A stretch of 51,077 nt of DNA, from contig JAWLBW010000002.1 in NCBI GenBank assembly GCA_041687475.1, positions 1 through 51,077 on the forward strand. The letters run 5' to 3'. Numbering within the stretch: position 1 is the stretch's first letter; every line of letters begins with the position of its first letter. The position numbers and the translations under genes were made by a program. The DNA comes from a bacterium (GTDB lineage: Bacteria > J088 > JAWLBW01). Below the pieces are notes generated by a model. It searched no databases, was not told the DNA's origin, and saw only the letters and a program-made list of their open reading frames with translations. Below are positions 23,345-39,397 of the stretch, in pieces.

Positions 23345-23610
23345 CGTCCTAATCCTTGTCTGGGCCTTTTCCGGCACGTGTTCTGGCTACGTGTTGCTTC
23401 GCTCAGCGGCGCACGCGCGCCCCGGTCACCAGCATGGGACAGCGAGACCCTGCAGACAACATCGAACGACTGAAAAGTAAACGCATTTCCGGCGAAGGCT
23501 CGCCGAAGGAGGCCGGAAGCCCCCAGCACGAATGATTCTTGAAAGCCGGTGCGCGGCTGAGACCCTGGGGCAAAACATACCCTGGCCCATGTCACCGATA
23601 AATGGAGTGA

Positions 23611-23661
23611 GGAAAAGAAGGGAAAAGACGCAGGGCGCAGCCGACACGGCTACGCCCTGCG
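23611..23661 (-). terminator. intrinsic terminator of the giant gene
   Basis: On the minus strand, right after stop TAA (23670-23672), a GC-rich stem gcgcagggcg...cgccctgcg (9-10 bp) is followed by tcttttcccttcttttcc. Confidence 0.6.
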
Positions 23662-23669
23662 CGAAAGAC

Positions 23670-26600
23670 TTACGGCAGGTAGCGGCCGCCGTCGTTCAAG
23701 ACGCCGGCGTTCTGCGCCTGGCCGGCCTCGCCGCCGAAGAGCAGCATGCCCTTGCCCGGCGCCCATACCGCGGTATGCCCGACTCTTGTCTGCGGCTCGT
23801 CTGCGCCGGAAACGCCGATCCAGGTGTTGGTGCCCGGCAGGTAACGTCCGCCGCCCGGAGCATAACCACCGGGGTCTACGCCGCCCCAGACGATCAACTC
23901 GTTACCGCTGAACACGGCTGTATGACGAGCCCGCCCAACCGGCGCGCCGGTCAGTCCGAGAAGCGTCCACCCTGTGCCGGGCATGTACCGTGCCCCGTCG
24001 TTGAAGTACGTTGTGGGGCCGCTGACACCGCCGAATACGATCATCTCGCTGCCCGACCACACAGCCGTGTGCCCGGTGCGTGGGGAAAGAGAGGTGCTGG
24101 GAATGGCCGTCCACTGGCCCAGCCCGGGATTGAACGAAGCCCCGTTGGAATAATGCGTGGTACCGTCGACACCACCCCATATGAGCATTTCCTGCCCGCT
24201 CCACACGGCCGTATGGCCTTCGCGAGGGGTAGGCCCGCCCGTCGCGACCTGCGTCCACGTGTCACCCGAGGCGTTGTAGCGACCACCGCTGCCCAACCGG
24301 TTGGTCATGTCCGTACCGCCCCAGACAATCATTTCCGCACCCGTCCAGACGGCGGTGTGATTGGTGCGCGCCGCGGGTACCCCGGTCAACGTGCTGGTCG
24401 GCGCCCACGAGTCGAGACTCGGGTCGTAGCGACCGCCCGAATTGAGCGCCCCGCCGACCGCGTCGACGCCGCCCCAGACAATCATGCGTCCGGCTTCCGG
24501 CGCCCAGACGGCGGTATGTCGGGCCCGGGCCGTGGGTGCGCCGGTAGTCTGCACCGGCGTCCACGACTCCGTCGCCGGGTTGTAGCGGGCGCCGGTATTG
24601 CGGTGCTGACCGGTTCTCACATTCTTGCCGCCCCAGACGATCATCTCGCTGCCGGTAAACACCGCCGTGTGTGCGGTACGTCCGACCGGCGTTCCGCCAT
24701 TGTCGATGGGCGTCCACGTGTCGGACTGCGGGTTGTAACGTCCGCCCGTGTTGAGCGCTTCGCCTTCGACTTCGGCGCCGCCGAAAACGAGCATATCGCC
24801 CCCGGTCCACACGGTTGTGTGGGCGTAACGGGGCCCCGGAGAGCCGACGTTGTTCATGTTAACCCAGCTTTCGACGGCCGGGTAATAAGCCGTTCCCGCA
24901 TCTATCGGGCTGCCCGATGAGCGGCCGCCGAAGACCAGCATCTGCTCGCCCGCCCAGACGGCCGTATGACCCGAACGCGCAGGCGAACCGGTGGGCATCG
25001 TTCCCCAGGTTCCCCCTTGCGGATAGAAAATTTCGCCGGTAGCCAGATCGGCTGCCCCCGACCGACCGCCGAAGACAATCATGCTCGATCCGGTCCACAC
25101 GGCGGTGTGCAATCGTCGCGTTTCGGTGGCGCCGCTGAAAGAGGTCCACGCGTTTCCGGCCGGATTGTATTGCTCGATGCTGTTGGTCTCTCCGGCGCCG
25201 TCGCGACCGCCGTGAACCAGCATGCCCTGGCCCGTCCACACGGCCGTGTGTTCGGCACGTGGCGATGCGGCAAGGGCCATCGGCCCCCACTGGTTGGTGC
25301 GCGGGTTGAAGCGGGCGCCGTCGTTACGGAAGCTCGTGCCGTCGTAGCCGCCGAATACGATCATCTCGCGACCGGTGTACAGCGCCGAGTGACCTACCCG
25401 GGCTACGGGCACTCCGGCCGGCTGAGTGGCTTGCCAGCTGTCGGAAATGGGGTCGTACATGCCGCCCGAATCAAGGTGCGCACCGAACCCATTCTTGCCG
25501 CCCCAGACCACCATGCGATCGCCCGCCCAGACGGCCGTATGCGCATAGCGCGCCTCCGGTGCGCCGGCACGCGCGACCGCCATCCAGCTGTCGGTCGCGG
25601 GGTTGTAGCGGGCGCCCGTGTCCCGGGGGCCGATGTGTCTTCCGCCCCAGACAATCATTTCCGTGCCCGTCCACACGGCCGTCTGCTCCGAGACCGCCAG
25701 GGGCGCATCGCCCAGGGGCACCCAGACATCGTTGCCCGTCTGCACCCAGGGTACGCGGTTTGAGCCGACCGACGAGGCGTCGAGTACGACCACCGACTGT
25801 CTGCCTGTCGTGCCCGCGGGTACGGTTACCTGCACGGTGTCGTCGGTCCACCCGTTAACGGTGGCCGGCATGCCGTCGAAGTGTACGGCCCCCGTGGTCG
25901 TGCCGAAATAACGGCCGCTGATCGTCATGGTCGTTCCCGGCGCGCCGTTCGCGGGGTAACGCATCTCAATCCACGGGCGCTCGTGCACAAAGGGTACGGC
26001 GTTGGAAACGTCGGGGCCCTTCGAAACGCGCAGCTTGAGGTTGCCCGCATTCGCGTTCACGGGAACCTCGGCAACAATCTGCGTGTCCGTCCACGTGTAC
26101 ACGTTGGCCGTGACGCCGCCGAAGTACACGTCGTTCTGCGGCGCCGGCGGGCCGAAGCCCGAGCCGTCGATGGTGACGGTGGCGTAGGAGCGCGCCGCCG
26201 CGGGCGTGATCGTCGTAATCTGCGGCATGGGCACGAAAACATCGAACGGCTCGCCGTTGCTGTAATTCGCGTCGATGCCGACCTGTACCGACCAGGTACC
26301 CGGTCCGAGTTCAGGCGGAACGCGAACCTGAATCAACGACGGCGCCCACGACACAGGTTCGGTCACGACACCACCGAACTCGATGGTGTTGCCGACCGCG
26401 AAATTGCCGAAGTTGTGGCCGATGATGTCGACGACTGCGCCCACCGGGCCGCTGACCGGATTAAGCGCCGTAATGGTGGGCGACACACTGATCCACTGGC
26501 CGGCACTCGTCTCACCGCCCGCAACCACGCGCATCTGACGTGAGCCGGCGGTTACCGCTTGGGGAATCTCTGCCTGAATTTCGTACGCATTCCAGCTGAG

Positions 26601-29600
26601 CACCGTAGCGGCGATGTCGTCGACGAGAACCTGTCCCTGGGTCGAGCCGAAGTTGGTGCCCGACAAGGTCATCGTGTCGCCGCCCGTGCCGTAGCCGGGC
26701 GAAATGGCGTTGAGATAAGGGATGACCGTGAAAGAAACCGGGGCCGATGGGAAGCCGTTAACGTTCACGCTCAATGGCTGAACGCCCGGCTCGGCATCGT
26801 TGGGCACCTGGAAATCGAACGTAACCTGGTCCCAGCCGCCCACGGTCGCACCGGCGCCCCCGACAAGCAAGGACGACGGCGTGGTTCCGAAGTTCGAACC
26901 GTAAGCCGTAACCGTGTTGCCGCCCGAGCCGCTGGTGAACGAGAGCGAATCGATGACCGGATATACGTCTACCCACTGCGCCTCGGAGTACATACTCGAA
27001 ACCATAACCTCGATCGCCTGCGGTCCGGCCCCGACATTGGCGGGTACCGAGATATCGATGGTGGTACCCGTCCACGAAAGAACCGTAGCGTTCACCCAGT
27101 TGATGAGCACCGAATTACCTACGCTCGTCTCACCAAAGCTCTCGCCCCAGAGCGTCAAGGTATCGCCGGCAACTACCGAAGAGCTCGAGATCGAGGTCAG
27201 GGTCGGTAGTATGTCGAACGACGTGGAATTGCTGTAAACCCCACCAGCAAAGACCTCGATCATCGTGTTTCCGGCTGCAACGCCAGCGGGTATCTCGAAA
27301 GTAATGTTTGTCGGACTCCACGAAACGATGTATGCAGGCAGCCCGCCGACATACACCTCATCGCCCGCGCTACCGCCCAGGTTCGCACCGTATATCTCGA
27401 CGGCATCGCCCGCGCGCGCGGCGATAGTGCCGATATAGTCGATACGGGGTGCGATGTCGATGGACAGCGTGTTCGTCGGATAACCGTACGCCCAGAGCTG
27501 TACCGGCTGCGTGCCGGGCGGCGTATGATCGGCCACGCGAATCTCGGCGGTCGTAGCCGACCACGTTTCGACCGGTTGGGTTACGCCGCCGATGCTTGCC
27601 TCAACGGGGAAGGCGAAGTTGCTGCCGCTCACAAAGAGCAGATCGCCGCCCGAGAGCGTACTCGCGCCAAGGCTGAGAAGCGAGGGCTGCACCGAAAGCG
27701 GAAGGCTGTTGCTGACGTCGCCCCCGGTCTCTACCCAGACCTGAACCTGACCGGCCGGCACCTCTTCGGGAACCGTCGCCGTAATCGCGGTTTCGTCCCA
27801 GAGAGAGATGTTTGCCATGAGCCCGTCGAAGAACACCGCGCTGTCGGATACGGGGAAGCCGAAATTGCTGCCGTACAACGTGATTTCCGTTCCGCCGGTG
27901 GCGCTCGAAGCACTCAGGGATGCAAGCGCGAAGGCGTCGACCAGAACCGACCAGGTGTACGCCGGGCTGGTGTTACCGGCCGGATCGCGGAACTGGACGG
28001 TTACCGCCTTGTTTCCGTTACCCGTCGTGAAGTTCACATACGTCGAGTCGGTAAAGGGTTGCCAGCTGCCGGCGTACCAGTCGGTAATGTCGCCGGTCAG
28101 CATCATCTCGAGCTGCCACCACTCGTGCCACCACTGGTCTTCCGCCTGCAGCGAAAGCATGGCCTGCGACACGCTCACCACGGTGGGGCCGGTAATGCCG
28201 CCCGTCGGCGCGGTGCGGTCGACGACGATTTCCGTGTGCACGCCGCCCGATGCATTGAACGCACCGTCGAGCGCGGCAATGTCGATCTGGTAAAGGCCCT
28301 CGCCCTCGTTGGGAATCGCCTGCGTGAAAGATGACTGTGAAGTCGCTACGAAATACTCGCGCGCGCCGTCGACGTGATTGTAGAACCCGTCGTCTTCGGC
28401 CCAGCCCCGTTGTTCCCCGCTGAGATCGGTATAAGTAGCCATCCAGTAATAGCCCCGGACGACACCACCCACACCCGAGGTAATCGGATCCTGCATCGAA
28501 CCCGAAATCAGAAGCTCGGTGGCCTGCGTCGTGGTGACGTTGGAAACCGGGTCGGTAATCATAAGCGTCGGCGGGGTGAGATCGACGCCCACGGTTTCCG
28601 TGTGCGCGGTTCCCGGATTTCCGAATCCGTCGACGCCGCGGAAGGAGACCGTATGCATGCCCTCGCCGCCCACATCGATTTCGACCACCGACCAGTCGCC
28701 GGTAAGCTCGTTCCAGGCGCCGCCGTTGACCGAGGCCTCGGCGCTCACCGCACCGGGCGCACCCGTGAGGTTGAAGCGAAGCAACGACGACCGCGCAAAA
28801 TCGCGTGTTTCGCCCGTCGAAGCAAGGGCGAGCACGCTTCCATTCACGCTGTACGCGCCCACGAGTAGATCGCCCACGCTATCGCCGTTCAGATCGCCGG
28901 GAACGGCCACGGTTCTTCCGAGGTAGTCGCCCGCGGCACCATCGAAGCGATAAAGATAGCGGCCTTCCTCGGTCGAGTACAGGTGTACCGACCCGGCGGC
29001 ACTTCCCCCATACCAAGTGGCCTCTTCGGTTACGACGAAAGCCTCGACACCGTCGCCCTCGAGATCGCCGGCCCATGCAACGGCAGCGCCGAAGCCACAG
29101 CCGGGGCCGCATTCGGAATACACCACGTGTTCAACGGCGCCGTCGAGCCCGTTGCTGATAAAGAGAGCACCCTTCTCGGTACCGGCCGGCGAGCCGACGA
29201 GAAGCATTTCCATGCCCGGTGTCAGCGACATGCCGTAGTAACCTGTTTCGACCTGTCCGTCGAGCCGGTACAGCAGCGAAGCATCGGTACCGCTGAAGGC
29301 GTACACGCTGCCGGCGTCGGTCACGCCGTAGTCGGCATAGGGCGCCCCCGCCACAAAGTCGGGCGTGCCGTCGCCGTTGAGGTCGGGCGTACCGGCCAAC
29401 GAACGTCCGAGTTCATCGGCCGTGTTGTCGCCCGAGACCTGGAACATCGTGCCGTAGTCGCTTCCGCGAACGACGAACACCCGGCCGCCGAAACTGCTTC
29501 CATTGGCGCCGACGAGAAACTCGTCTTTTCCGTCTTGATCAAGGTCTTCGGCTGCGGCGACCGTCTTACCGTAGTTCTCATTGGCCGCGGTACCGTCGAG

Positions 29601-32600
29601 CCTTGTCAGCTCGATTCGTGTGCCCCCGGAAATTACGTATACCGAGCCGGCGTTGGATGCGGCGAAGTCGGTATCGGGCGCGCCGATGAGCAGGTCGCGA
29701 TAGCCGTCGCTGTCGATATCTGCGACGGTTGCCAGGGAAGACCCGAACTTGTCGCCGGCGGTGGCCCCGGTAAGCGTATGAAGCACCGATCCGTCGGCGC
29801 CCGAGCGTATTTCGACCTTACCGGCATCGACTCCGGCTGCGTCATCGCCCGGAATGCCGACCGCAAAGTCGGCTATGCCGTCGTCATTGAGATCGTCGAG
29901 CGCCGCCAGGCCGCGTGCCATGTCGTCGCCGGTGTTTGCCCCGTCGACACGCCACGCCAGCGTCGCCCCGGTTACAAACGTGCGGAAGGGGGCCTTTACC
30001 GTCAATGCGGGCCCGCTCGTGCTGAGGTATACCGTGTCGCTGACCGGTGAGCTGGCATGGCCCACGGCGTCGTACACGGTAACCCAGACGGTTTTTTCGC
30101 CGTTGGCGGGGCTCAGGTTGATCGAGCTTGTGCCCTGGAAGGGAACGTCGAGCAGAGGGGTGGCAACATCGCCCGTCACATCCATGGTGGCCACGTCGCC
30201 GCTGACCGTCAGGTCGAGCGACACCAGCGACGAGTTGACCGTCGAAGCTCCGCCTGCCAACTCGACTGCGCCCAGCAGCGGCGCTGAAGTATCGAGGGTA
30301 ACCGTGTCACTCTGCAGAATCGTCGTGTTGCCCGCCGCATCGCGATACTGCACGCTTACGGTCTTGGTTCCGTCGCCCGCCGTCACCGTCGCACTGAGCA
30401 TCGACGCATACGGCATCCACGTACCGCGATAGGCGTCGACAATGTCGCCGTCGACCAACATTTCGACCGGCCCGGTTTCTCCGGACGCTTCGAACAACAG
30501 CGTGACGTCTTGCGATGCGGTATAGGGGTACTGCGGCACATCGATGGCGATACAGACTGCGCACTGTGGCGCGAGCGTGTCGATGGTGAATTGAACGGGG
30601 AAAGTCGACGCTCCGGTATTTCCCGCCTGGTCTACGGCCCGCGCCTCGACGAAGTATGCGCCGTCACTCAGTGCCGACAGGGCCCAGCTCCAGCTGGACG
30701 TTCCCGTGGCCGTGAACCAGATAGGCGCCGGCGAGGTGAAGGAGGCCCCGTCGAAGAAGTTAACGCCGTCGGAGAGATTCGACTCGACGAAAACAATTCC
30801 GGAACCGGCGCCGTCGTCTGCCATTCCGTCGACCGACATGACCGCCGTCTGTCGGCTTCCGTCGAGCGGTTGGGTGATTGTCGTCGACGGCGGGGTTACG
30901 TCGAGCGTAACCGAGGCCGCGTTCGCCGGAGAGATGAGCCCTACGACGTCGCGTACCCTCACGTACACGGTCTTCAGGCCGTCGCCGGCCGACAAGGTAA
31001 CTGCGGGCGATGCGGTATACGACTGCCACCCGGCGCCGCCGAAGTCGGCGCTTTCGGAAATCTGCATCTCGGTTGCGCCGATCGCGCTCACCGAAAGCGA
31101 GACGTTGGGCGTATTCACGTACGTCGGCTCACCTGCGATTGAAACAACCGGAGCTCCGGGCGCCACCGTGTCGACAAGCAACGCCCCGGTCGAAGGCGAC
31201 CAGCTACTGCGGTTGCCGGCGGCATCGACCGCAGCCAATCGATAGACATATGCACCGTCGCTCGGCAGGTAGGTATAATCGGGCTGCGTAACGACGGCAA
31301 TGGTCGCGAAGGTGGCGCCATCGTCGGAAGAAGCCTGCAGTACGTATTCTGCGACGCCGCTGCCGCTGTCAATTACACTGCTCCAGGAAATGGTAACCGC
31401 AGTAGAGACCGGATTCGCCGAGAATACCGGCATTTCAGGGGCCGGCGGCGCTGCCGTATCGATCGTGACCGGAAGCGAAATGCTCGAGAATGCCCCCGTG
31501 TTTCCTGCCCGGTCGATGGCGCTCACCACGAAAAGATACTCGCCGTCGGCGGGCAGGTAGCTGTAGACCGGCTCGGTCATGGAGTCGACGTGATACCACG
31601 TCGTACCACCGTCGTTCGAAGCGCCCAGGTTATAGTGGGCAATACCGGCAGCTGCGTCGGTAGCCGGGCTCCACGCGAGTTCGACCGCGGTAGATACCGC
31701 ATTGGCGGCGGCCAGAGGCGTACCCGGAGCCGAGGGCGGAGTCTGGTCGACCAATACGCCCTGGTACAGCTGGGCAGTATCACTCCGGTTACCGAGCAGG
31801 TCGCTCGCGCTGACGCGGAACAGGTATCCACCTTCGCCGAGCGAAGCCGTGTAAGAGGTAACCGCACTGGTTCCGATCACGAACCAGGTAGCGGCATCGA
31901 CCGAAGCTTCCACCCGATAAGTGGAAACGCCGACGCCGTCGTCGACCGAGGGTTCCCAGCTCAGCTGCACCGGACCCGATACCGGACTCTCGGCATAACG
32001 GATATCGTAAGGCCGTGAAGGCGGTGTCGTATCGAGGGTGACGGTTGTCGTCGCTGCCGCCGAAAGGTTTCCGGCCAGGTCGCGATAGCGTGCGTAAACG
32101 GTGCGAAGTCCGTCGCCGTCGACAAATGGAACGCCGTCGCCCGTATAGCCGGGCGTGCCGTTGCCGGCTACCGAGTCGATCTTGCCGCTCTTCACCCGTC
32201 GAATTGCATGATTGCCGGCGTCGGCCAGGAAACCACCCTCTTCGCCCAATGCAAGCCCGGCGAGGCTGTGTAGACGGGCGTTCTGTTCGGGCCCGCCGTC
32301 GCCGGCATAGCCGGGCGTGCCGTCGCCCAACAGGGTTTCCAGGTAACCGTCGGGCCGGATAACGCGCAGCACGTGATTACCGGTATCGGAAATAAGCACT
32401 TCGCCTTCGTTCCAGACCACGGAAGTGGGCGAGTCAAGGCTTGCCGAGGTCGGAATCGTTTCGGCAGCCGAGTACCCGACCGAGCCCGTTCCGGCCATGG
32501 TGCTGATATTGCCGGCCGATTCGACCTTGCGCACGCGATGGTTTCCGGTGTCGGCAATATAGAGGTTGTCGTCGGGGTCGACCCAGACACCCGAGGGAGA

Positions 32601-35600
32601 CGAAAGCTGTGCGTTACGGGGAACGTCGCCGTCGCCGGCGAACCCGGGCAGGCCCGTACCCACGGCAGTCGATATCTGACCGCTGCCGTCGACCTTGCGA
32701 ATGCGATGGTTGTCGCGGTCGGCAATGTAGAGTTCGCCCCCCGAGTCAACGGTAACCTGCGTGGGAAAGTTGAGCTGCGCGTCGACCGCCAGTCCGGCGT
32801 CGCCGTTCTCACCGGCGCCGTTACCGCCTGCAACGGTTGAAACATAGCCGCCTGCGTCGATGCGACGAATGGCGTGGTTACCCGAGTCGGCAATGTAGAG
32901 ATTGCCCTGCCCGTCGAGCATGAGACCATGCGGAGCGTTCAGGCGGGCGCCGGTCGCAAGGCCGCCGTCGCCGCTGTACCCGGGCGTTCCGTCGCCCGCG
33001 ATGGTTTCGATATTGGCAGCCGAGTCGATTCGGCGAATGACGTGATTGCCGGTGTCGGCGATATACAGGTAACCGGCCGGGTCGTAAGCCACCGATTGCG
33101 GGCTGCTTACCTGAGCCGCGAACGAGCCGCCCTTGTCGCCCGAAAGCGTGAACATGGCCGTCGACGAGAAGGTTTCCCAGCTGGTGGCAATCGAGAAGTC
33201 GGCCACGTCGGCGAACTGCATTTCCCAGGCATCGGAGGCGTAGGTATACAGCGGCAATGTCGGGTCGGAAACGGCCACGGGGTTGCCGGCGATTTCGACG
33301 CTTTCGTCAACGGGTGCTGCGGTGTCAAGCTCGACGTTATCGCTCAAGGTGCCGCTGCTGTTGCCCGCGTTGTCATGCAGCTCAACGCTCACCACCTTGG
33401 GTCCGTCGCCCGCGGTCAAGGTTACCGAGGTCGAAAGGGTAAAGGCGGTCGTGTACAAGCCGCCGTCGACGTCGCCGCCGATGACCATGGTGGTCGCATC
33501 GCCCGTAGCCGTGATGTCGAGGGTCACGACCTCGGTGTTGACGTAGGCATCGTTGTTCGCAAGAAAGACATTGCCAAGCACGGGAGAAGTGCGGTCGAGC
33601 GTAATGCTGTCGGCATGGCTCAGGCTGGTATTTCCGGCCGGATCGCGAAATTCGACACTGACCGTCTTCACGCCGTCGCTTCCGGTCAGGTTTACCTGCG
33701 GGGTCGCAGCAAAGGGAATCCATGTACCTTTGAAAGCGTCGACGATGTCGCCGTCGATACGCATTTCGATCTCGTGCTCATCGTTGGCGTCAAGAAGCAG
33801 CGTCACGGCCGTCGTCGCGGAATAGGGATATACCGGCGAGTCGATGACCAGACAAGTCGAACAGGCAGGCGCCAACGTATCGATGGTGAAAGCCGTCGGC
33901 GCTGCCGGTACTTCCCGATTGCCGGCGCTGTCGATGGCGCGGCTTTCGACCTGATAGGCCCCGTCGGTCAGCGCCGGAGGCGTCCAGCTGAAGTTTACCG
34001 AGGTGGCCGCCGGCAGCCATACGGGAGAAGGGCTCGTGAACCCGGCCCCGTCCCAATACAGCAGACCGTCGCTCAGGGCCACCTCGACGCTGTCGAGGCC
34101 GGCGGCTCCGGTTTCGGCCCAGGTACCTTCGACCAGGGGAAGGCCGGCGAGAATATCGTTCGGCATCGGCGTGGTCACTACGGACGAAGGCGCCGTGCGA
34201 TCGACCACCAACGTGGCATCGGGCGACGAAGGACCGGAAATTCCCGCACCGTCGACCGCATGCACGCGATACTGCAGGGTGCCCTCGACCGGTGCGTACT
34301 CGTAGGAGGTAGACGCCGTGGAAATGACCTGCGACCAGGTTGCCCCCATGTCGGTCGAGACGTCGAGCACGTAGTTCTGAATACCGCTGGTGTCGTCAGA
34401 CGCAGGCGCCCAGGAAATGGTAACGGTAGCCGACACCGGGTTGGCCGAAAACACCGGTATACCGGCCACTTCGGGCGGCGTGGTGTCGAACACCAATTCG
34501 TCGGAAAGCGTCGACCATGGCCCGTAGTTACCCGCCTCGTCCTTGGCGGCGACCCGCAGAACGTAGCGCCCATCGGTCTCGGGTGCGTAAACGAAGGAGG
34601 TAGCCGGCTGGAAGGCGATCATCGTAAACGTGCTTCCGCCGTCGGCCGAGTCTTCGAGTACGTAGGAAACGTTCGTGGCGTCGGTAACCGCCGACCACGT
34701 GACGGTAACGGCGGCGGTGGCCGGGTTGCCGCTGAATACGGGCGCCGAAGGCGTCGGCGGGGCCGTCGCATCGATGCGCACGGCCGAAGACCCGGCAGAC
34801 CAGTCGCTGACGTTCAGGGCGTTGTCGCGCGCGCGAATGCGATACACGTACTCGCCGTCTGCGCCGGGAATGTCGGTGAAGCCGAGGTCGGTCGTCGTGG
34901 CAAGAAGCGTCCAGTTCACCCAATCGGACGAGCGCTGCACCTGGTAGTCTTTCGTACCGGTCATGCCGTCGACCACCGCTGTCCACGCAAGGGTAACGCC
35001 GGTGGCCGAGACCGAGGCCGAGGGAACGGGGGCCGCGGGAATCGGCGGCAGGCCGGTATCGACCGTGACCTTTTCCGAATAGCCCGAAGCCGTGCTGTTT
35101 CCGGCGGCGTCAAGGGCGACGTAGCGATAGCGGAAATAGCCGCTGCCCGGCATGTCGACGACGGTTGTGGCCGTCGTAACGCCAAGCTGAGTCCACGTTA
35201 CCCCCTCGTTGACCGATCGTTCGAGGCGGTATGCGTCAATGCCGTTCTCGTCGGTCGCCGCCGGCCAGGAAAGTCCGACCGCAGACGAGACCGGATTGGC
35301 GGCAACGACCGGTGCTCCGTTGACCACGGGCGCCGTCTGGTCGACGACCAGCGCTTCGGAAACCATCCAGCCGCTGGCATTGCCGACCTTGTCCCTGGCC
35401 GCGACGCGTACCTGATACGTACCCTCGCCGGCCGACGTCCACGTATACGATTCACCGGCGACGTAGTTGATGAAGTACCAGTTGGCGCCGTCGGTCGTCC
35501 AGCGCAGTTCATAATTGTTCAGGCCCGAACCGCCGTCGGTGGCCGCGCCCCAGCTCACGTCTACCGACTCGGAAACCGGATTGGCCGAGAACACCGGCAC

Positions 35601-37664
35601 GCCGGGGTCGGAGGGCGACGTCAGGTCGAGATAGGTGCTCGCCGAGCCGAAGGTCGATGTGTTACCGGCCGTATCGCGCACGCGTACCCTGACGGTTTTC
35701 GTGCCGTCCGTCGGCGGAAGCGTCACTTCGGGCGTGCCGTCGAACGGCATCCACGCGCCGAGTATGCCTTCGACCTCAATCTGCATCTGCGCTTCGCCCG
35801 AGACGACTACCATTGTCTGCAGCGGCTCGGCGACCCATGCGGGGCTGCCGTTGAAGGCTACCACCGGCTGATTCGGCGCAACGGAGTCGTAAACGACCGA
35901 TGTCGATGCGCCGGCCGAGACGTTTCCGGCCTCGTCGCGCAGACGCAGATAGATGGTGTGCTCGCCCTGTTCGGTCGGCAACATGAACATGGGGGTTGCC
36001 CAGAACTGTTGCCACGGCTCGCCCTGGAAATCGGGGCTCGTCGACAGCTGCATCTGCACGGCGCCGCTGCTCTCGATAGCCAGCGTTACCGTTTGCGTCG
36101 ACACGGCCGCCGGAGCGCCGGAAACCACAAAGGTAAAGATGGCCGGCGGCGTCTGGTCGAACGTTACGTCGACCGAAGCAGTCGCCACATTGCCGGCCTG
36201 ATCGCGAAAGCGCCCGTGAATGGTCTTGAGCCCGTCGCCTCCCTGTAAGGTAAACGCAGGCGTCGCCGTGTACGGCTCCCACGCAACGCCGCCAAACAGG
36301 GCGTCGGCCGAAAGCTGCATTTCGGTTGCCCCGCCCACGTCAATCTGCAGGTTGACGGTCGGCGCCGAAACGGCTGCCGGAGCCCCCGCAACCGCAAAGC
36401 CGAAGACCTCGGGCGCCTGGCGGTCAAGCAATACGGTGGTCGAGGTCTCGGCAATATTGCCGGCGGCATCGCGAAAACGTGCGTAAATACCGTATTGACC
36501 GTCGGAACCCGGCAGTTCGAAGAGCGGGCCCGGCTCGTAAGCCTGCCATGCCGCCCCCTGGAAACCCGGGTCGCCGGCAAGCTGCATGTCGACGGCGCCG
36601 GATACTTCCAACGCGAGCTGCACGGTCGGGATCGAAACGGCAAACGGCGCTCCGGCAACCCCGAAGGAAACAATTTCGGGCACCACCCTGTCGAGCGTGA
36701 CCGAAATCGAGGCAGCAGCGACATTGCCTGCCGCGTCGCGGAACCGAGCGTAAATGGTTTTGACGCCGTCGCCGCCCGGAAGCGTTACTTCGGCGGTCGT
36801 TGCCACCGGCACCCACGTGGCCCCGGCGAAGTCGGGAGCCGCCGACAGCATCATTTCTCCGGCGCCAGTAACACCAATCTCAAGCGTGACCGTGGTCTGA
36901 CTGACCGCGCTCGGCGAGCCGGCCAACCCGAATGTCTGCACGACGGGGGCCACCGTATCGAGGGTAACCGCGAAGGCTACCGGCGCACCGTACGATTGGT
37001 CGTCGTTGAATGCGGCCAGGGAAAGGCTGTTCCCACCTTCCTTCAGGGTCGTACGGAAGGTGAAGGTCTTGTCGCCGTTACGCGACACCACCTGCTGCCC
37101 GTTCAGCGAGACACCGGTGTACATCTGCTTGCGCCCCGAAAGCGCAAGCTCGGCCCGGTTGGTGACAGCGGCGGGAAAGCGATCGACGACAAGCAGCTTC
37201 GGGTTAACGGGGCCGAGAAAGAATTCGCCGGCATCGGTAAGCTCGTCGGCCCGCACCACAACGCCCCGCTTGCGATCGCGCAGTACCAGCTCATTGCCCC
37301 GCAAGGCCTCGATGACCACCTCGTAGGTTCCCGCGGCCATACCCAGAAGCTCTGCCTGCCTGGCAGCCGCGTCGAACGACTCGGTAACCACCGTCTTGCC
37401 GTTCTGGAGCGCCGAGACACGAATCGTCGTCAGGGTCACCGCCGTATCATAGGCCGCCGCGCGCCAGCCATCGCCGCTCGCGGCACGAGAGATACCGTCG
37501 GCCAGCGCGTAATCGGCGGCCAGCGCGTAATCGGCGGCCAGCGCGTAATCGTCGGGAAGATGCGCCTCGAACACAACCGTACCCGGCCCTTCCGGCGTAC
37601 AGCCCCCAAGCGCGGCGGCAGTAACGAGGGCGTTAACGAAAAAACGAAGGCGTTTCGCAATCAT
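23670..37664 (-). CDS. giant (about 4,664 aa) multi-domain surface lipoprotein / adhesin-like protein
   Basis: A single uninterrupted 14-kb ORF (the track gives 4696 aa from 37760). ATG 37664 gives MIAKRLRFFVNALVTAAALGGC, a signal peptide plus lipobox L-G-G-C. The translation contains at least 13 Ig-like repeats (GDGxKTVYxRxRDxAGN), 8 FN3, 6 NHL, 7 FG-GAP, 9 IPT/TIG and 14 Kelch repeats. A terminator follows. Confidence 0.9.
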   Translation of the reverse strand: MIAKRLRFFVNALVTAAALGGCTPEGPGTVVFEAHLPDDYALAADYALAADYALADGISRAASGDGWRAAAYDTAVTLTTIRVSALQNGKTVVTESFDAAARQAELLGMAAGTYEVVIEALRGNELVLRDRKRGVVVRADELTDAGEFFLGPVNPKLLVVDRFPAAVTNRAELALSGRKQMYTGVSLNGQQVVSRNGDKTFTFRTTLKEGGNSLSLAAFNDDQSYGAPVAFAVTLDTVAPVVQTFGLAGSPSAVSQTTVTLEIGVTGAGEMMLSAAPDFAGATWVPVATTAEVTLPGGDGVKTIYARFRDAAGNVAAASISVTLDRVVPEIVSFGVAGAPFAVSIPTVQLALEVSGAVDMQLAGDPGFQGAAWQAYEPGPLFELPGSDGQYGIYARFRDAAGNIAETSTTVLLDRQAPEVFGFAVAGAPAAVSAPTVNLQIDVGGATEMQLSADALFGGVAWEPYTATPAFTLQGGDGLKTIHGRFRDQAGNVATASVDVTFDQTPPAIFTFVVSGAPAAVSTQTVTLAIESSGAVQMQLSTSPDFQGEPWQQFWATPMFMLPTEQGEHTIYLRLRDEAGNVSAGASTSVVYDSVAPNQPVVAFNGSPAWVAEPLQTMVVVSGEAQMQIEVEGILGAWMPFDGTPEVTLPPTDGTKTVRVRVRDTAGNTSTFGSASTYLDLTSPSDPGVPVFSANPVSESVDVSWGAATDGGSGLNNYELRWTTDGANWYFINYVAGESYTWTSAGEGTYQVRVAARDKVGNASGWMVSEALVVDQTAPVVNGAPVVAANPVSSAVGLSWPAATDENGIDAYRLERSVNEGVTWTQLGVTTATTVVDMPGSGYFRYRYVALDAAGNSTASGYSEKVTVDTGLPPIPAAPVPSASVSATGVTLAWTAVVDGMTGTKDYQVQRSSDWVNWTLLATTTDLGFTDIPGADGEYVYRIRARDNALNVSDWSAGSSAVRIDATAPPTPSAPVFSGNPATAAVTVTWSAVTDATNVSYVLEDSADGGSTFTMIAFQPATSFVYAPETDGRYVLRVAAKDEAGNYGPWSTLSDELVFDTTPPEVAGIPVFSANPVSATVTISWAPASDDTSGIQNYVLDVSTDMGATWSQVISTASTSYEYAPVEGTLQYRVHAVDGAGISGPSSPDATLVVDRTAPSSVVTTPMPNDILAGLPLVEGTWAETGAAGLDSVEVALSDGLLYWDGAGFTSPSPVWLPAATSVNFSWTPPALTDGAYQVESRAIDSAGNREVPAAPTAFTIDTLAPACSTCLVIDSPVYPYSATTAVTLLLDANDEHEIEMRIDGDIVDAFKGTWIPFAATPQVNLTGSDGVKTVSVEFRDPAGNTSLSHADSITLDRTSPVLGNVFLANNDAYVNTEVVTLDITATGDATTMVIGGDVDGGLYTTAFTLSTSVTLTAGDGPKVVSVELHDNAGNSSGTLSDNVELDTAAPVDESVEIAGNPVAVSDPTLPLYTYASDAWEMQFADVADFSIATSWETFSSTAMFTLSGDKGGSFAAQVSSPQSVAYDPAGYLYIADTGNHVIRRIDSAANIETIAGDGTPGYSGDGGLATGARLNAPHGLMLDGQGNLYIADSGNHAIRRIDAGGYVSTVAGGNGAGENGDAGLAVDAQLNFPTQVTVDSGGELYIADRDNHRIRKVDGSGQISTAVGTGLPGFAGDGDVPRNAQLSSPSGVWVDPDDNLYIADTGNHRVRKVESAGNISTMAGTGSVGYSAAETIPTSASLDSPTSVVWNEGEVLISDTGNHVLRVIRPDGYLETLLGDGTPGYAGDGGPEQNARLHSLAGLALGEEGGFLADAGNHAIRRVKSGKIDSVAGNGTPGYTGDGVPFVDGDGLRTVYARYRDLAGNLSAAATTTVTLDTTPPSRPYDIRYAESPVSGPVQLSWEPSVDDGVGVSTYRVEASVDAATWFVIGTSAVTSYTASLGEGGYLFRVSASDLLGNRSDTAQLYQGVLVDQTPPSAPGTPLAAANAVSTAVELAWSPATDAAAGIAHYNLGASNDGGTTWYHVDSMTEPVYSYLPADGEYLFVVSAIDRAGNTGAFSSISLPVTIDTAAPPAPEMPVFSANPVSTAVTISWSSVIDSGSGVAEYVLQASSDDGATFATIAVVTQPDYTYLPSDGAYVYRLAAVDAAGNRSSWSPSTGALLVDTVAPGAPVVSIAGEPTYVNTPNVSLSVSAIGATEMQISESADFGGAGWQSYTASPAVTLSAGDGLKTVYVRVRDVVGLISPANAASVTLDVTPPSTTITQPLDGSRQTAVMSVDGMADDGAGSGIVFVESNLSDGVNFFDGASFTSPAPIWFTATGTSSWSWALSALSDGAYFVEARAVDQAGNTGASTFPVQFTIDTLAPQCAVCIAIDVPQYPYTASQDVTLLFEASGETGPVEMLVDGDIVDAYRGTWMPYASMLSATVTAGDGTKTVSVQYRDAAGNTTILQSDTVTLDTSAPLLGAVELAGGASTVNSSLVSLDLTVSGDVATMDVTGDVATPLLDVPFQGTSSINLSPANGEKTVWVTVYDAVGHASSPVSDTVYLSTSGPALTVKAPFRTFVTGATLAWRVDGANTGDDMARGLAALDDLNDDGIADFAVGIPGDDAAGVDAGKVEIRSGADGSVLHTLTGATAGDKFGSSLATVADIDSDGYRDLLIGAPDTDFAASNAGSVYVISGGTRIELTRLDGTAANENYGKTVAAAEDLDQDGKDEFLVGANGSSFGGRVFVVRGSDYGTMFQVSGDNTADELGRSLAGTPDLNGDGTPDFVAGAPYADYGVTDAGSVYAFSGTDASLLYRLDGQVETGYYGMSLTPGMEMLLVGSPAGTEKGALFISNGLDGAVEHVVYSECGPGCGFGAAVAWAGDLEGDGVEAFVVTEEATWYGGSAAGSVHLYSTEEGRYLYRFDGAAGDYLGRTVAVPGDLNGDSVGDLLVGAYSVNGSVLALASTGETRDFARSSLLRFNLTGAPGAVSAEASVNGGAWNELTGDWSVVEIDVGGEGMHTVSFRGVDGFGNPGTAHTETVGVDLTPPTLMITDPVSNVTTTQATELLISGSMQDPITSGVGGVVRGYYWMATYTDLSGEQRGWAEDDGFYNHVDGAREYFVATSQSSFTQAIPNEGEGLYQIDIAALDGAFNASGGVHTEIVVDRTAPTGGITGPTVVSVSQAMLSLQAEDQWWHEWWQLEMMLTGDITDWYAGSWQPFTDSTYVNFTTGNGNKAVTVQFRDPAGNTSPAYTWSVLVDAFALASLSASSATGGTEITLYGSNFGFPVSDSAVFFDGLMANISLWDETAITATVPEEVPAGQVQVWVETGGDVSNSLPLSVQPSLLSLGASTLSGGDLLFVSGSNFAFPVEASIGGVTQPVETWSATTAEIRVADHTPPGTQPVQLWAYGYPTNTLSIDIAPRIDYIGTIAARAGDAVEIYGANLGGSAGDEVYVGGLPAYIVSWSPTNITFEIPAGVAAGNTMIEVFAGGVYSNSTSFDILPTLTSISSSSVVAGDTLTLWGESFGETSVGNSVLINWVNATVLSWTGTTIDISVPANVGAGPQAIEVMVSSMYSEAQWVDVYPVIDSLSFTSGSGGNTVTAYGSNFGTTPSSLLVGGAGATVGGWDQVTFDFQVPNDAEPGVQPLSVNVNGFPSAPVSFTVIPYLNAISPGYGTGGDTMTLSGTNFGSTQGQVLVDDIAATVLSWNAYEIQAEIPQAVTAGSRQMRVVAGGETSAGQWISVSPTITALNPVSGPVGAVVDIIGHNFGNFAVGNTIEFGGVVTEPVSWAPSLIQVRVPPELGPGTWSVQVGIDANYSNGEPFDVFVPMPQITTITPAAARSYATVTIDGSGFGPPAPQNDVYFGGVTANVYTWTDTQIVAEVPVNANAGNLKLRVSKGPDVSNAVPFVHERPWIEMRYPANGAPGTTMTISGRYFGTTTGAVHFDGMPATVNGWTDDTVQVTVPAGTTGRQSVVVLDASSVGSNRVPWVQTGNDVWVPLGDAPLAVSEQTAVWTGTEMIVWGGRHIGPRDTGARYNPATDSWMAVARAGAPEARYAHTAVWAGDRMVVWGGKNGFGAHLDSGGMYDPISDSWQATQPAGVPVARVGHSALYTGREMIVFGGYDGTSFRNDGARFNPRTNQWGPMALAASPRAEHTAVWTGQGMLVHGGRDGAGETNSIEQYNPAGNAWTSFSGATETRRLHTAVWTGSSMIVFGGRSGAADLATGEIFYPQGGTWGTMPTGSPARSGHTAVWAGEQMLVFGGRSSGSPIDAGTAYYPAVESWVNMNNVGSPGPRYAHTTVWTGGDMLVFGGAEVEGEALNTGGRYNPQSDTWTPIDNGGTPVGRTAHTAVFTGSEMIVWGGKNVRTGQHRNTGARYNPATESWTPVQTTGAPTARARHTAVWAPEAGRMIVWGGVDAVGGALNSGGRYDPSLDSWAPTSTLTGVPAARTNHTAVWTGAEMIVWGGTDMTNRLGSGGRYNASGDTWTQVATGGPTPREGHTAVWSGQEMLIWGGVDGTTHYSNGASFNPGLGQWTAIPSTSLSPRTGHTAVWSGSEMIVFGGVSGPTTYFNDGARYMPGTGWTLLGLTGAPVGRARHTAVFSGNELIVWGGVDPGGYAPGGGRYLPGTNTWIGVSGADEPQTRVGHTAVWAPGKGMLLFGGEAGQAQNAGVLNDGGRYLP
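23673..25740 (-). other. giant protein: 14 Kelch-type repeats (enough for two 7-bladed propellers), C-terminal
   Basis: 14 occurrences of the roughly 50-aa unit H-T-A-V-W-(T/S/A)-G-x-x-M-(I/L)-V-(W/F)-G-G ... R-Y-(N/D)-P-x-x-(D/N)-x-W. The protein ends ...NDGGRYLP with no recognisable sorting tag. Confidence 0.8.
25741..27929 (-). other. giant protein: 9 tandem IPT/TIG domains
   Basis: Nine roughly 80-aa units each contain GG(T/D)x(I/L)T(L/I)xG(S/T)NFG and ...V/I..W....I...VP......G...V.V. Boundaries are approximate. Confidence 0.7.
28815..29960 (-). other. giant protein: FG-GAP (integrin-alpha-like) 7-bladed propeller
   Basis: Six DxDxDG-type loops (DLNDDGIADFAVG, DIDSDGYRDLLIG, DLDQDGKDEFLVG, DLNGDGTPDFVAG, DLEGDGVEAFVV, DLNGDSVGDLLVG) plus one degenerate blade, with intervening (F/Y)G motifs. 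Boundaries are approximate. Confidence 0.75.
31165..32035 (-). other. giant protein: FN3 block 2 (3 domains)
   Basis: Units like PVFSANPVSTAVTISWSSVIDSGSGVAEYVLQASSDDGATFATIA...YVYRLAAVDAAGNRSSWS show the FN3-like W...Y...Y.V.A.D..GN pattern. Boundaries are approximate. Confidence 0.65.
32130..33125 (-). other. giant protein: 6 NHL repeats (6-bladed propeller) inserted in an Ig-like repeat
   Basis: Six units have (L/V)YIAD(T/S)GNH(x)(I/V)R(R/K)(I/V) cores: GNHVIRRID, GNHAIRRID, DNHRIRKVD, GNHRVRKVE, GNHVLRVIR, GNHAIRRVK. Each is followed by G(D/N)GTPGY(S/A/T)GDG. Confidence 0.8.
34185..35620 (-). other. giant protein: FN3 block 1 (5 domains)
   Basis: Five roughly 97-aa units, for example PVFSANPVSESVDVSWGAATDGGSGLNNYELRWTTDGANW...YQVRVAARDKVGNASGW. 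Boundaries are approximate. Confidence 0.65.
35625..36968 (-). other. giant protein: 5 tandem Ig-like roughly 90-aa repeats
   Basis: Five consecutive units follow the pattern (T/L)LD..(A/P)P......(A/S)G.P.AVS..TV.L.I...GA..MQLS....F.G..W.....T..F.L.GGDG.KTIY.RFRD.AGN. Confidence 0.75.
37501..37554 (-). repeat. 18-bp in-frame tandem repeat x3 (encodes DYALAA-DYALAA-DYALAD) near the 5' end of the giant gene
   Basis: The plus strand reads gccagcgcgtaatcggcg twice perfectly (37501-37536), then gccagcgcgtaatcgtcg with one mismatch (37537-37554). It lies about 17 codons after the lipobox Cys. Confidence 0.9.
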
Positions 37665-38011
37665 GGCTTCCCTGTAACGAGCGGTGACCGGCAGACCAGT
37701 CGCCGGGTGAACCTTTGGGTGGAACGTCCGAATATTAACACAGCGCGGCAACACCAACAAACGATCCAGATCACACTCCGGAAAATTCTTTCAGACGAAA
37801 TATGGACAAGGGAGCGGGAACAGGCTGAAACGCTTCCCGGCTTCCGGGTAAAAACCTTCGAATACCTCCGGAATCCCCCATGCGTGCGCGGGATCACAGC
37901 AGGCCCGGGCCAAACGGGTTACAACGTGAACAGCGGTCTGTCGGAGAAAGGCTGGCCGGTTAAGCGTCCTTCTGCTAGGCTGGGGCATTCATCTTCCGTC
38001 ACGACTTACCG

Positions 38012-39397
38012 ATGAATTCGCGTACAAGACACCTGACTTCGCTGTTGTTCGGCACCCTGCTTCTGCTTACGCCGCCGTCTGCCTCGGCGCAGGACGACTT
38101 TTCGGGAAACCTGGAAATCGGCACCACCCTTTTCCGCCTCGGCAAAGACGAAAAAGCCGTCATTTACCTAGAGCGAGCCGCCGAGGCGCGTCCCGATGAT
38201 TCTTCGGCGCTGATTCCGCTGGGTATCTCGCTGTCTCGACTCGGTCGCCATGAAGAGGCGGTAACGGTGCTCGAGCGCGCCGAGCTCAAAGGCACCCTCG
38301 GCGCCGATGGGGCCTGGTATCTGGGCGAGTCGTGGAAAGCGCTGGGGAATCGAGAAGCCGCCCGCCATGCCTACCAGCTGGCCGCCGAACTGGGGGGCCC
38401 ACTGAGCACGCGTGCCCTGCTTGAAAGCGGGCGCATGGCCCTGACGCTCGGCGACCTGCAGGGCGCCGAACGCGATTTCGAACGGGTGCTGCAACTGCAG
38501 GCAGCCGGCGATCTGGCCGCCGAAGCCCGCGCGGGGCTGTCCGAGGTGTCACGTCGACGGAGCACCCGCCTGGCCGTAAACGTCGATGCGGGCATTCGCT
38601 ACGACAGCAACGTACTTCTTTCGGGCGCCCCGACGAGCGACGACCGCGGCTTTCGCGCCGTCGTGAACGGTCAGGGACGATACCGCTTCATCGAAACACA
38701 ATCGCTGCGCTCGGAAGGGGCCGTGGTTGTAAATCAGGGCCGCTATTTCGACCCCGACCACCGGGCCCTCGATTTGGGCGTTCACCAAGCGCAGGCCGAT
38801 CTGACCTGGCGGCCGGGCAAGCTACCCCTTCGCCTCGGCGGCCTGGTGCGTGCCGAATACTGGACGCTCGACTTCCATTTCTACAAACGCGCCATCGGCG
38901 TGGGGCCGCGCCTGCTTGTCGCCATGGGCGAGAACTTCGCCACCGCGGCTTCGTGGGAATGGCGGCTCGACGATTTCCGCAGCGACGAGCGCGACGGTAT
39001 CAACCGGCGTGCCCAGCTCAACCAATTCGCCTTCTGGGGAAAAACCGGCTACGCCGGCATCGGGGCCAGTTACGAAACCAACCGTGCCGCCGACGACTTC
39101 TGGATTTACGATCTGCTGAGCGCCCGCATTTTCGGCGGCGGCGACGTGGGGGCGGGCATTCTCGTCGACGGCAGTTTCGAGTACCTGCTTACGCCCTATC
39201 TGGCCGAGTCGGTCGACCGCACCGACCGGGCCCTCAGCGCCGCGCTGGGCGTGAGTCGCTGGTGGGGCGACTGGGGTGTGCGCCTCTCGACCGCGTGGAT
39301 TCGGAACGAAAACGTGCGCGCCCCCGAAATCGGCGTTCTGGCCGGAAACTACACCAAGTGGCTGGGCGGTCTCGAAGCCCGTTGGCGCATGCCCTGA
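38012..39397 (+). CDS. outer-membrane protein: N-terminal TPR domain + C-terminal beta-barrel (Slam/DUF560-like architecture)
   Basis: The signal peptide is MNSRTRHLTSLLFGTLLLLTPPSASA-QDD. About 170 aa are TPR-like helices (GKDEKAVIYLERAAEARPDD, GRHEEAVTVLERA, GNREAARHAYQLAAELG, GDLQGAERDFERVLQLQ). About 290 aa then carry roughly 14 alternating-hydrophobic strand-like segments, starting RLAVNVDAGIRYDSNV and ending GGLEARWRMP. Confidence 0.7.
   Translation: MNSRTRHLTSLLFGTLLLLTPPSASAQDDFSGNLEIGTTLFRLGKDEKAVIYLERAAEARPDDSSALIPLGISLSRLGRHEEAVTVLERAELKGTLGADGAWYLGESWKALGNREAARHAYQLAAELGGPLSTRALLESGRMALTLGDLQGAERDFERVLQLQAAGDLAAEARAGLSEVSRRRSTRLAVNVDAGIRYDSNVLLSGAPTSDDRGFRAVVNGQGRYRFIETQSLRSEGAVVVNQGRYFDPDHRALDLGVHQAQADLTWRPGKLPLRLGGLVRAEYWTLDFHFYKRAIGVGPRLLVAMGENFATAASWEWRLDDFRSDERDGINRRAQLNQFAFWGKTGYAGIGASYETNRAADDFWIYDLLSARIFGGGDVGAGILVDGSFEYLLTPYLAESVDRTDRALSAALGVSRWWGDWGVRLSTAWIRNENVRAPEIGVLAGNYTKWLGGLEARWRMP

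Follow-up and report, generated by a model that had tools for sequence, protein, structure and literature searches.

The placement of lipoproteins on the surface of Gram-negative bacteria is only partly understood, and the known dedicated routes (Slam/type XI secretion, the Bacteroidota export signal and the spirochetal systems) deal with proteins roughly a tenth of the size of the giant lipoprotein considered here. The gene for this protein lies on the minus strand at positions 23,670 to 37,664 of a 51,077-nucleotide stretch of bacterial DNA (contig JAWLBW010000002.1 of NCBI GenBank assembly GCA_041687475.1, positions 1 to 51,077), and this whole stretch is called the window below. On balance, the gene appears to encode a genuine 480-kDa bacterial lipoprotein, most likely a very large adhesin or binding protein that acts multivalently at the cell surface, and it lies beside genes for a FecR-domain protein and for a predicted outer-membrane protein (OMP) composed of a TPR domain and a beta-barrel.

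In the Slam/type XI secretion system (T11SS), the OMP consists of a periplasmic TPR domain and a 14-stranded DUF560 barrel (PMC5449769; bioRxiv 10.1101/2024.09.26.615229), approximately 52% of Slam genes adjoin a lipobox gene (PMC5449769), and the cargo carries an 8-stranded beta-barrel domain that is usually C-terminal (PMC5449769; bioRxiv 10.1101/2024.09.26.615229). Among uncultured bacteria, giant genes are rare overall and recurrent in certain lineages, and their products, of up to tens of thousands of residues, have been linked to type II secretion and pilus-like loci (bioRxiv 10.1101/2023.11.21.568195).

The giant gene and the domain anatomy of its product

When counted from its first TTG, the minus-strand open reading frame (ORF) spans 23670..37760, and an ATG at 37664 gives a product of 4,664 amino acids (aa) that begins with MIAKRLRFFVNALVTAAALGGC followed by TPEG. 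An AGGGAAG Shine-Dalgarno-like motif lies immediately 5' of this ATG. The relative P0022, a protein of 3,752 aa (NCBI GCA_041690355.1, contig JAWLHK010000006.1), begins with MAPAKATARLLTGALLFFLSAAC and starts at the equivalent position, in support of the ATG at 37664 as the start. The single uninterrupted giant ORF described in the initial annotation of the window is thus borne out (23670-37664, 4,664 aa).

Domain families were assigned by Pfam and NCBIfam scans of the whole protein and of ten segments (E <= 0.01), and extra anatomy was taken from self-comparison and from hidden Markov models (HMMs) built on the giant's own repeats. Iterated repeat HMMs merged the Ig-like and FN3 domains, and the separation of the two by such HMMs was rejected; the counts given here come from the uniterated HMM and Pfam. 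From the N-terminus onward, the features are as follows.

23670..37664, minus strand: giant lipoprotein gene, 4,664 codons plus stop (Pfam and NCBIfam matches along the full length)
37599..37664, minus strand: signal peptide and lipobox, aa 1-22, with Cys22 as the predicted lipidated residue (PS51257-type pattern)
36945..37598, minus strand: tether (DYALAA x3) and N-terminal region, aa 23-240 (no known family)
35616..36944, minus strand: five Ig-like repeats of the Big_13/OmpL47 type, aa ~241-683 (own repeat HMM, 116-142 bits per copy; Pfam Big_13 2e-19)
34200..35615, minus strand: five FN3 domains, aa ~684-1155 (repeat map; Pfam fn3 6.9e-9)
33315..34199, minus strand: module 1, consisting of a Big_13-like domain, a CxxC (C1268/C1271) and two Ig-like domains, aa ~1156-1450 (Big_13 1.7e-12)
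33129..33314, minus strand: split Ig-like repeat, N-terminal two thirds, aa 1451-1512 (Ig HMM positions 4-60 of 89, 44 bits)
32121..33128, minus strand: six-blade NHL propeller, aa 1513-1848, predicted to lie within an Ig-like repeat (six 56-aa blades; Pfam NHL 1.8e-34, TEN_NHL 1.1e-30)
32010..32120, minus strand: split Ig-like repeat, C-terminal third, aa 1849-1885 (Ig HMM positions 58-89, 37.6 bits)
30900..32009, minus strand: three FN3 domains and one Ig-like repeat, aa ~1886-2255 (repeat map, own HMMs, Pfam)
30006..30899, minus strand: module 2, with a CxxC at C2368/C2371, aa ~2256-2553 (self-comparison, Pfam)
28815..30005, minus strand: seven-blade FG-GAP propeller of the integrin-alpha type, aa ~2554-2950 (Pfam FG-GAP 6.2e-32)
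27900..28814, minus strand: degenerate module 3, including an OmpL47-type beta-barrel domain, aa ~2951-3255 (NCBIfam NF047446; weak Big_13)
25731..27899, minus strand: nine IPT/TIG domains, aa 3256-3978 (own HMM, 9 copies at 70-98 bits; Pfam TIG 1.4e-70)
23673..25730, minus strand: fourteen Kelch blades, aa 3979-4664 (14 HTAVW-type blades; PF24681 6e-99, PF24981 1e-74, Kelch_1 2e-45)
23628..23662, minus strand: intrinsic-terminator-like hairpin with a 16-bp stem and 12 GC pairs, directly after the giant stop codon

The giant's N-terminus follows the PROSITE PS51257-type lipoprotein rule (a positive n-region, a hydrophobic h-region and a lipobox whose Cys lies among the first ~35 residues), with K4, R5 and R7 and with ALVTAAALGGC at residues 12-22, and FFLSAAC stands at the place of this lipobox in P0022. 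The predicted mature protein has 4,643 aa, a mass of 480 kDa and an isoelectric point of 4.2. Residues 23-60 form a tether with DYALAA x3, encoded just past Cys22 by an 18-nt x3.2 tandem repeat at 37499-37555 (97% matches) that is the sole DNA-level tandem repeat in the giant gene; in-frame slippage at this repeat could alter the length of the tether. For residues 23-240, which comprise this tether and the region of aa 61-240, neither a Pfam match nor a PDB match by sequence search was found. The N-terminal region and its counterpart in P0022 share 45% identity, and given this identity the empty result of a word-indexed homolog search with aa 1-300 was a false negative.

Beyond this region, Pfam E-values for the giant's domain families reach 1e-93, and the chain comprises approximately 33 beta-sandwich domains (Ig-like of the Big_13/OmpL47 type, FN3 and TIG). 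Modules 1 and 2, each a three-domain unit of ~290 aa, are 39-55% identical by self-comparison, and a PDB sequence search with module 1 returned no match. The OmpL47-type domain family NF047446 matches the whole protein at 3.1e-36 (123.6 bits against a cutoff of 40), with its best stretch at aa 2975-3026. There are only seven cysteines in the giant, namely Cys22, two in each CxxC and two in a CGPGC of the FG-GAP propeller, and the chain terminates in NDGGRYLP. In the Pfam and NCBIfam scans, no T9SS CTD, PEP-CTERM, MYXO-CTERM, LPXTG, autotransporter or RTX/HemolysinCabind family was found as a C-terminal sorting signal; a MYXO-CTERM family gave a single match (E 0.007) at aa 956-1052, away from the C-terminus. 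Taken together, these scans support most of what the initial annotation had read from the sequence: the signal peptide and lipobox AALGGC with Thr at +2 agree with the PS51257-type pattern and Cys22, every domain family in its stated order, with three copies of the module, was recovered by the HMM searches that it had proposed, and neither a recognizable C-terminal sorting tag nor RTX repeats were detected.

Arrangement of the beta-propellers

The two Ig-like fragments that flank the NHL propeller appear to be halves of one domain. When aa 1451-1512 and aa 1849-1885 were spliced, the pair matched positions 4-89 of the Ig repeat HMM with 81 bits, compared with 44 and 37.6 bits for the halves alone, and three intact control Ig repeats scored 26-55 bits on the same HMM, below the spliced pair. 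Because the spliced halves match the Ig HMM from end to end, the 336-aa NHL propeller would sit in the hairpin between TLSGD and GDGLRTVY, and at the level of sequence it is therefore nested within an Ig-like repeat. To be set against this arrangement is a single-sequence AlphaFold2 (AF2) model of aa 1427-1890, in which the NHL blades reached a predicted local distance difference test score (pLDDT) of 60-79 and the Ig halves were left unmodelled, so that the model neither confirms nor refutes the nesting. Against the PDB, the NHL propeller matches a teneurin-like protein (6e-68).

The FG-GAP propeller matches integrin alpha5/alphaV in the PDB (1e-14). Five of its blades carry the calcium-loop-like motif Dx[DN]xDG, the definition of which was taken from PMC3192720, a sixth carries DLNGDS and one is degenerate. 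Nesting of this propeller in the manner of the NHL propeller was considered and rejected, as its flanking domains are complete. The closest PDB matches of the Kelch blades are KLHL20/Keap1. With 6-7 blades per propeller as the criterion, 14 Kelch blades are too many for one propeller; they therefore probably form two, which would bring the chain to four propellers. The count of 13-14 Kelch blades recurs in the relatives P0022, P0060 and P0090.

These results modify the earlier description of three "stalk + propeller" super-modules that each end in a propeller. The three propeller families stand; the placement of the NHL propeller at the end of a stalk does not, given its insertion in an Ig-like repeat. 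Likewise, the 14 Kelch repeats were found as described, but they exceed what one propeller would hold.

Relatives of the giant lipoprotein

Relatives were collected by an exhaustive HMMER search with aa 2250-3449 against 1.84 billion representatives, which returned 41,684 matches, mostly via FG-GAP. Many proteins of 3,000-7,400 aa with 31-38% identity occupied the top ranks, and the Ig-like repeat type is common to dozens of them. Among the 150 best relatives, none combines NHL, FG-GAP and Kelch, one combines NHL and FG-GAP, and none combines Kelch and FG-GAP; the combination of all three is thus as unusual as had been supposed. A strict pattern found a lipobox in 10 of the 33 relatives of at least 3,000 aa, and lipoboxes were recognized by eye in P0020, P0021, P0025, P0026, P0030, P0044 and P0054. 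The giant belongs to a widespread and unstudied class of very large proteins, many of them lipobox-bearing, for which the only annotation is hypothetical. A word-indexed search with aa 1131-1520 returned small proteins only (28-36% identity), and pattern scans with the giant over genome contigs and metagenome contigs returned no match.

P0022 is collinear with the giant over aa 1-1495 (34% identity) and aa 3122-4664 (37% identity) and, in sequence terms, is its divergent ortholog. The two proteins are alike in their lipobox, Ig-like/FN3 stalk, CxxC module, 9 TIG domains, 13-14 Kelch blades and YLP end, as well as in their divergent TPR-barrel and FecR neighbors. P0022 differs in being 900 aa shorter, in its nested DUF5122 propeller and in having no FG-GAP propeller. 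Its own split Ig-like repeat (1769-1820 and 2215-2248) surrounds this DUF5122 propeller in place of NHL; the frame is thus common to the two orthologs and the propeller heads are not. A shared N-terminal domain in P0020 and the giant was rejected by both BLAST and phmmer.

Further observations were made among the relatives. The genome of P0022 holds a second lipobox giant, P0021 (4,839 aa, with 43 TIG domains by own HMM; L086, 8001-22520), without FecR or TPR neighbors. A chain end of the form [YF]-[LMIV]-P occurs in the giant (23673-23690) and in 9 of the 150 best relatives (chance ~0.1, a rough estimate from typical residue frequencies), namely P0020, P0022, P0030, P0033, P0051, P0060, P0066, P0090 and P0104, with P0030 ending in YMPPP. 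P0020 has this end though its C-terminus is without Kelch blades, and the ends of P0033, P0051 and P0104 look unlike the Kelch RYxP motif; the ending may mark the close of a domain or act in recognition. The divergent neighbor of the distant giant P0026 is a CsgG/FlgO-family gene (L089, 6345-7634), which would be a different candidate outer-membrane partner in that lineage. The best match to module 1 is P0001, a 629-aa Big_13 protein that is overlapped by 29 nt by a 1,605-aa NHL/SBBP/LVIVD protein (L083, 5212-11890); a frameshift may here have divided a single larger gene.

The neighboring FecR and TPR-barrel genes

Two genes lie divergent from the giant gene, across 347 nt.

38012..39397, plus strand: P0017, a predicted OMP with a signal peptide, a TPR domain (aa 30-184) and, over its last ~270 aa, a predicted 14-strand beta-barrel (Pfam TPR; AF2)
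39474..40481, plus strand: FecR-domain secreted protein with an acidic linker and a GIRVRW end (Pfam FecR 4.7e-16; NCBIfam Lsa33 1.5e-15)

TPR families match P0017 with E-values down to 2e-13 in Pfam, and the AF2 pLDDT of the TPR part (aa 30-180) is above 90. A FecR and TPR-barrel pair was present in all five loci found, three of which adjoin giants (the window, L084 and L085). At the P0022 locus (L084) the pair has the same divergent layout as in the window, whereas at the P0020 locus (L085) the giant, FecR and TPR genes are co-directional, with gaps of 22 and 16 nt. The FecR and TPR-barrel proteins of L085 are homologous to those of the window (25-33% identity), with a common barrel-start motif AGI(R/E)YDSNVLL. 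Because the two gene orders occur in lineages far apart, these three positive loci are suggestive of a functional coupling between the giant and the FecR and TPR-barrel pair. The comparison of orthologs and neighborhoods proposed in the initial annotation has thus yielded P0022 and a pair that is kept at the three closest giants. The route to the surface, which it had treated as an open question, is still one without a sorting tag, and the adjacent pair is now a concrete candidate for it. A pattern scan of metagenome contigs with the TPR-barrel alignment returned no match.

Several observations weigh against this coupling and the role of the pair. The 14 beta-strands in the C-terminal part of P0017 were assigned by DSSP on an AF2 model made from a 3-sequence alignment, at a pLDDT of 30-60. 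The pair lies beside NadA with no giant nearby in L081 and L082, and four more distant giants are without the pair alongside; the link between giant and pair could therefore be local synteny rather than function. It is possible, if somewhat unlikely, that the TPR-barrel and FecR genes have nothing to do with the giant and belong, for example, to a small exopolysaccharide porin of the BcsC/PgaA kind or to some other envelope module, and that the giant reaches the surface by a general route (BAM/Lol-dependent or other) or stays periplasmic or anchored in the inner membrane. Such a reading would account for the conservation of the pair beside rpmB without a giant in L081 and L082, for the flanking genes that L081 has in common with L084 when the giant gene is not among them, and for the more distant giants that lack the pair; it also accords with BcsC as the best whole-length structural match of the OMP and with polysaccharide genes (Wzz, polysialyltransferase-like, DegT) 6-10 kb away. 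However, the tight and independently arranged giant-FecR-TPR cluster in a distant relative (25-33% identity) would not readily follow from inherited synteny alone, the BcsC match is at the level of architecture only (TM-score 0.26, root-mean-square deviation 25), and P0017 is far smaller than BcsC, PgaA or PelB.

The architecture of P0017 also raises the question of T11SS. As a Slam or type XI secretion-like translocon, the TPR-barrel OMP would flip the giant to the surface as its cargo, with the FecR protein as a periplasmic accessory. P0017 has the layout and size of Slam (a signal peptide, ~150 aa of TPR and ~270 aa predicted as 14 beta-strands), SlipAM/DUF560 (PF04575) is the only Pfam family that matches the barrel part at E<10, the L085 homolog matches TPR_Slam weakly, and adjacency to a lipobox giant is kept in three loci and two gene orders. 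Yet the SlipAM match to the P0017 barrel falls short of significance (E 0.09-0.28; 11-13 bits, the cutoff being 22) and appears in one of four homologs; PF04575 does not match the barrel of the L085 homolog, and the TPR_Slam match of that protein (18 bits) falls below the cutoff of 35. When the P0017 model was compared with the PDB by Foldseek, BcsC was the sole whole-length match and the others were TPR proteins. Furthermore, the giant ends in Kelch blades, and the 8-stranded barrel of T11SS cargo (TbpBBD or lipoprotein C type) was not found in it by Pfam or NCBIfam. FecR is no known T11SS partner, with zero occurrences in the T11SS cargo preprint (bioRxiv 10.1101/2024.09.26.615229), and the FecR and TPR-barrel pair also occurs without an adjacent giant. 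With the DUF560 match insignificant and no cargo barrel found, P0017 was therefore not filed as a Slam member; it appears to resemble Slam/T11SS in architecture only and not significantly in sequence, and cargo status for the giant in such a system is unlikely.

The FecR partner proteins carry only a signal peptide (window, 39474-40481; L084, 7422-8300; L081, 6277-7125; L085, 22947-23810), and those of the window, L084 and L085 end in a beta-signal-like strand with a terminal aromatic residue (GIRVRW in the window and L084, KVKVDF in L085). The C-terminal strand of the FecR protein may dock into the partner barrel. In L085, lspA (Peptidase_A8) and lgt lie at 29348-30748, ~4 kb downstream of the giant-FecR-TPR cluster.

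Integrity of the reading frame and assembly

GC content at third codon positions (GC3) is 0.76 ± 0.03 in every 300-codon block of the giant gene, the same as in its neighbors. Self-comparison of the gene at the DNA level gave top non-self matches of 65-71% identity and no exact repeat longer than 23 nt. With no near-identical repeats and a uniform GC3, there is therefore nothing to collapse in assembly and no compositional seam. The strong terminator after the stop codon indicates that the giant gene closes its own transcription unit. A sigma-70-like promoter was not found in the 347-nt divergent intergenic region upstream of the giant gene, and an Rfam scan of the whole window found no RNA family. 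A plus-strand ORF of 1,124 aa lies antisense within the giant gene (32874-36248) and is read as a shadow ORF of the kind common in high-GC coding DNA.

That the ORF is an assembly artifact, either several repeat-rich genes joined in error or a repeat array that was collapsed, is very improbable: the window is a whole NCBI contig, the genome-collection matches to the neighboring GH65 gene are mostly records of metagenome-assembled genomes (MAGs), the central third (aa ~1496-3121) is without a collinear counterpart in P0022 and an exact-sequence look-up of the 4,664-aa product gave no match, but the frame is open over 14 kb with the composition just described, both ends of the giant are collinear with an independent assembly (P0022), the non-collinear middle starts and stops at domain boundaries, its FG-GAP-plus-module unit is found again in P0020, and the null look-up is accounted for if the gene caller picked another start codon, the neighbor P0017 being on record from the same contig. 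As far as sequence can show, the giant ORF is a real and intact gene and no assembly artifact.

Other genes in the window

Downstream of the giant gene, three small ORFs (21860-23377, minus strand) encode proteins that look membrane-anchored, each with a charged N-terminal region and with a hydrophobic stretch near or at its C-terminal end; these resemble ElaB/YqjD in appearance, with only a weak PRK10132 match (E 0.07). At 17738-21815 (plus strand), a fusion of HAD and trehalose-phosphatase is directly followed by a GH65 phosphorylase. This GH65 protein has matches of 49-60% identity across many phyla, the best (60%) in Gemmatimonadota and Acidobacteriota MAGs; because the best match reaches only 60%, the host lineage appears to be poorly sampled. 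None of 80 loci of GH65 matches held a giant-like sequence. An exact-sequence look-up of the GH65 protein gave no match, as for the giant, and another called start codon is the likely cause.

Beyond the FecR gene, copper type II monooxygenase-like (PHM/DBH-like) proteins with lipobox-like N-termini (FAAAC and LTAAGC) are encoded at 40503-41888 (plus strand) and 42432-43697 (minus strand), the second also with a CSGCH heme-c motif. A polysaccharide cluster at 45057-49410 includes Wzz-like, polysialyltransferase-like (PF07388, 3e-8) and DegT aminotransferase genes. At 13595-14530 (plus strand), a secreted protein matches NCBIfam BstC, a sterol transporter outer-membrane protein (E 1.4e-18, 67 bits against a cutoff of 350).

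Discussion

The predicted beta-barrel OMP, the Wzz gene and the BstC-like outer-membrane protein in the window place the giant in a diderm context. In such a cell, the precursor would be exported by Sec and, following established lipoprotein biology, lipidated at Cys22 by Lgt, LspA and Lnt. Lol would then sort the lipoprotein to the outer membrane, because the +2 residue is Thr and not Asp. The extended chain would measure ~120-140 nm (~33 domains at ~3.5-4 nm, plus the propellers), which is too long for the periplasm, and the giant would therefore be extracellular, displayed outside the cell and held by its N-terminal lipid. The beta-sandwich chain would serve as a stalk that projects the NHL, FG-GAP and Kelch propellers as ligand-binding heads, for multivalent and probably calcium-dependent binding to surfaces, polymers or other cells. 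The heads may be exchangeable cassettes, given the nested DUF5122 propeller and the missing FG-GAP unit of the ortholog. It counts against an adhesin that this function is read solely from domain types, and that propellers of the NHL, FG-GAP and Kelch families may instead act as enzymes or serve a structural purpose only.

The FecR-domain protein and the TPR-barrel OMP would be the best candidates for moving the giant across the outer membrane or holding it there. As a tentative proposal, which as a whole we regard as quite unlikely, the giant, the FecR protein and the OMP of TPR and ~14-strand barrel may constitute an undescribed three-part export or anchoring system for surface lipoproteins of ~0.5 MDa that lack the 8-strand cargo barrel, Slam-like in architecture and not detectably so in sequence, with heads swapped as cassettes in Ig hairpins. 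The conserved trio is tractable, as a candidate for a new route of export or anchoring. The nesting of a propeller in an Ig hairpin, with another family in its place in the ortholog, bears on how modular adhesins gain new specificities, and the giant offers an entry to a large unnamed class of giant proteins now annotated as hypothetical. If the neighbors are unrelated, the giant is still a well-documented, but fairly ordinary, adhesin-like protein.

Comparison with known systems

With Slam/T11SS (TbpB, fHbp and NilC), the locus has in common a lipoprotein gene beside a gene for an OMP of periplasmic TPR and a putative ~14-strand barrel; it differs in that the DUF560 barrel match is not significant, the cargo is without an 8-stranded barrel and there is an extra conserved FecR partner. 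The giant is also approximately ten times larger than typical T11SS lipoproteins.

Several likenesses to Leptospira surface proteins were found, among them OmpL47, a surface protein with multiple beta-barrel domains, which gives a precedent for a surface adhesin at the level of a domain. The OmpL47-type domain of the giant lies above its NCBIfam cutoff (123.6 against 40 bits), but the giant falls below the full-length equivalog NF047441 (72.9 bits against a cutoff of 250), and it thus shares a domain with OmpL47 and is no ortholog of it. Likewise, the giant partially matches the LIC10067 lipoprotein family, and the neighboring FecR protein resembles Lsa33/LipL45, neither reaching the equivalog cutoffs. 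In the Lig-type lipoprotein adhesins of Leptospira, an N-terminal lipid anchor is followed by tandem beta-sandwich domains, a layout to which the design of the giant can be likened. Dissimilar from the Leptospira surface proteins, the giant is approximately ten times larger, carries beta-propellers and has no spirochete context.

The giant adhesins of type I secretion systems (T1SS; LapA, SiiE and MpIBP) are comparable in size and have a long Ig-like stalk, distal ligand-binding domains and calcium-binding motifs; however, the giant would be anchored by its N-terminal lipid and not by a retention module lodged in an outer-membrane pore. No RTX repeats or C-terminal T1SS signal were found in the giant, nor ATP-binding cassette (ABC), membrane fusion protein (MFP) or TolC genes among the neighboring ORFs scanned. 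Finally, the giant resembles the giant genes of uncultured bacteria described by West-Roberts et al. in being a very large extracellular multi-repeat protein, as predicted here, from an uncultured source; lipoproteins are mentioned nowhere in that preprint (bioRxiv 10.1101/2023.11.21.568195).

Giant Ig-stalk adhesins and lipoprotein adhesins with Ig arrays are thus already known, and homologs of the giant are present, unannotated, in databases. What this locus appears to add is a lipid-anchored giant with three propeller families, a propeller set in an Ig hairpin and swapped in the ortholog, and a conserved neighborhood of FecR and TPR-barrel genes.

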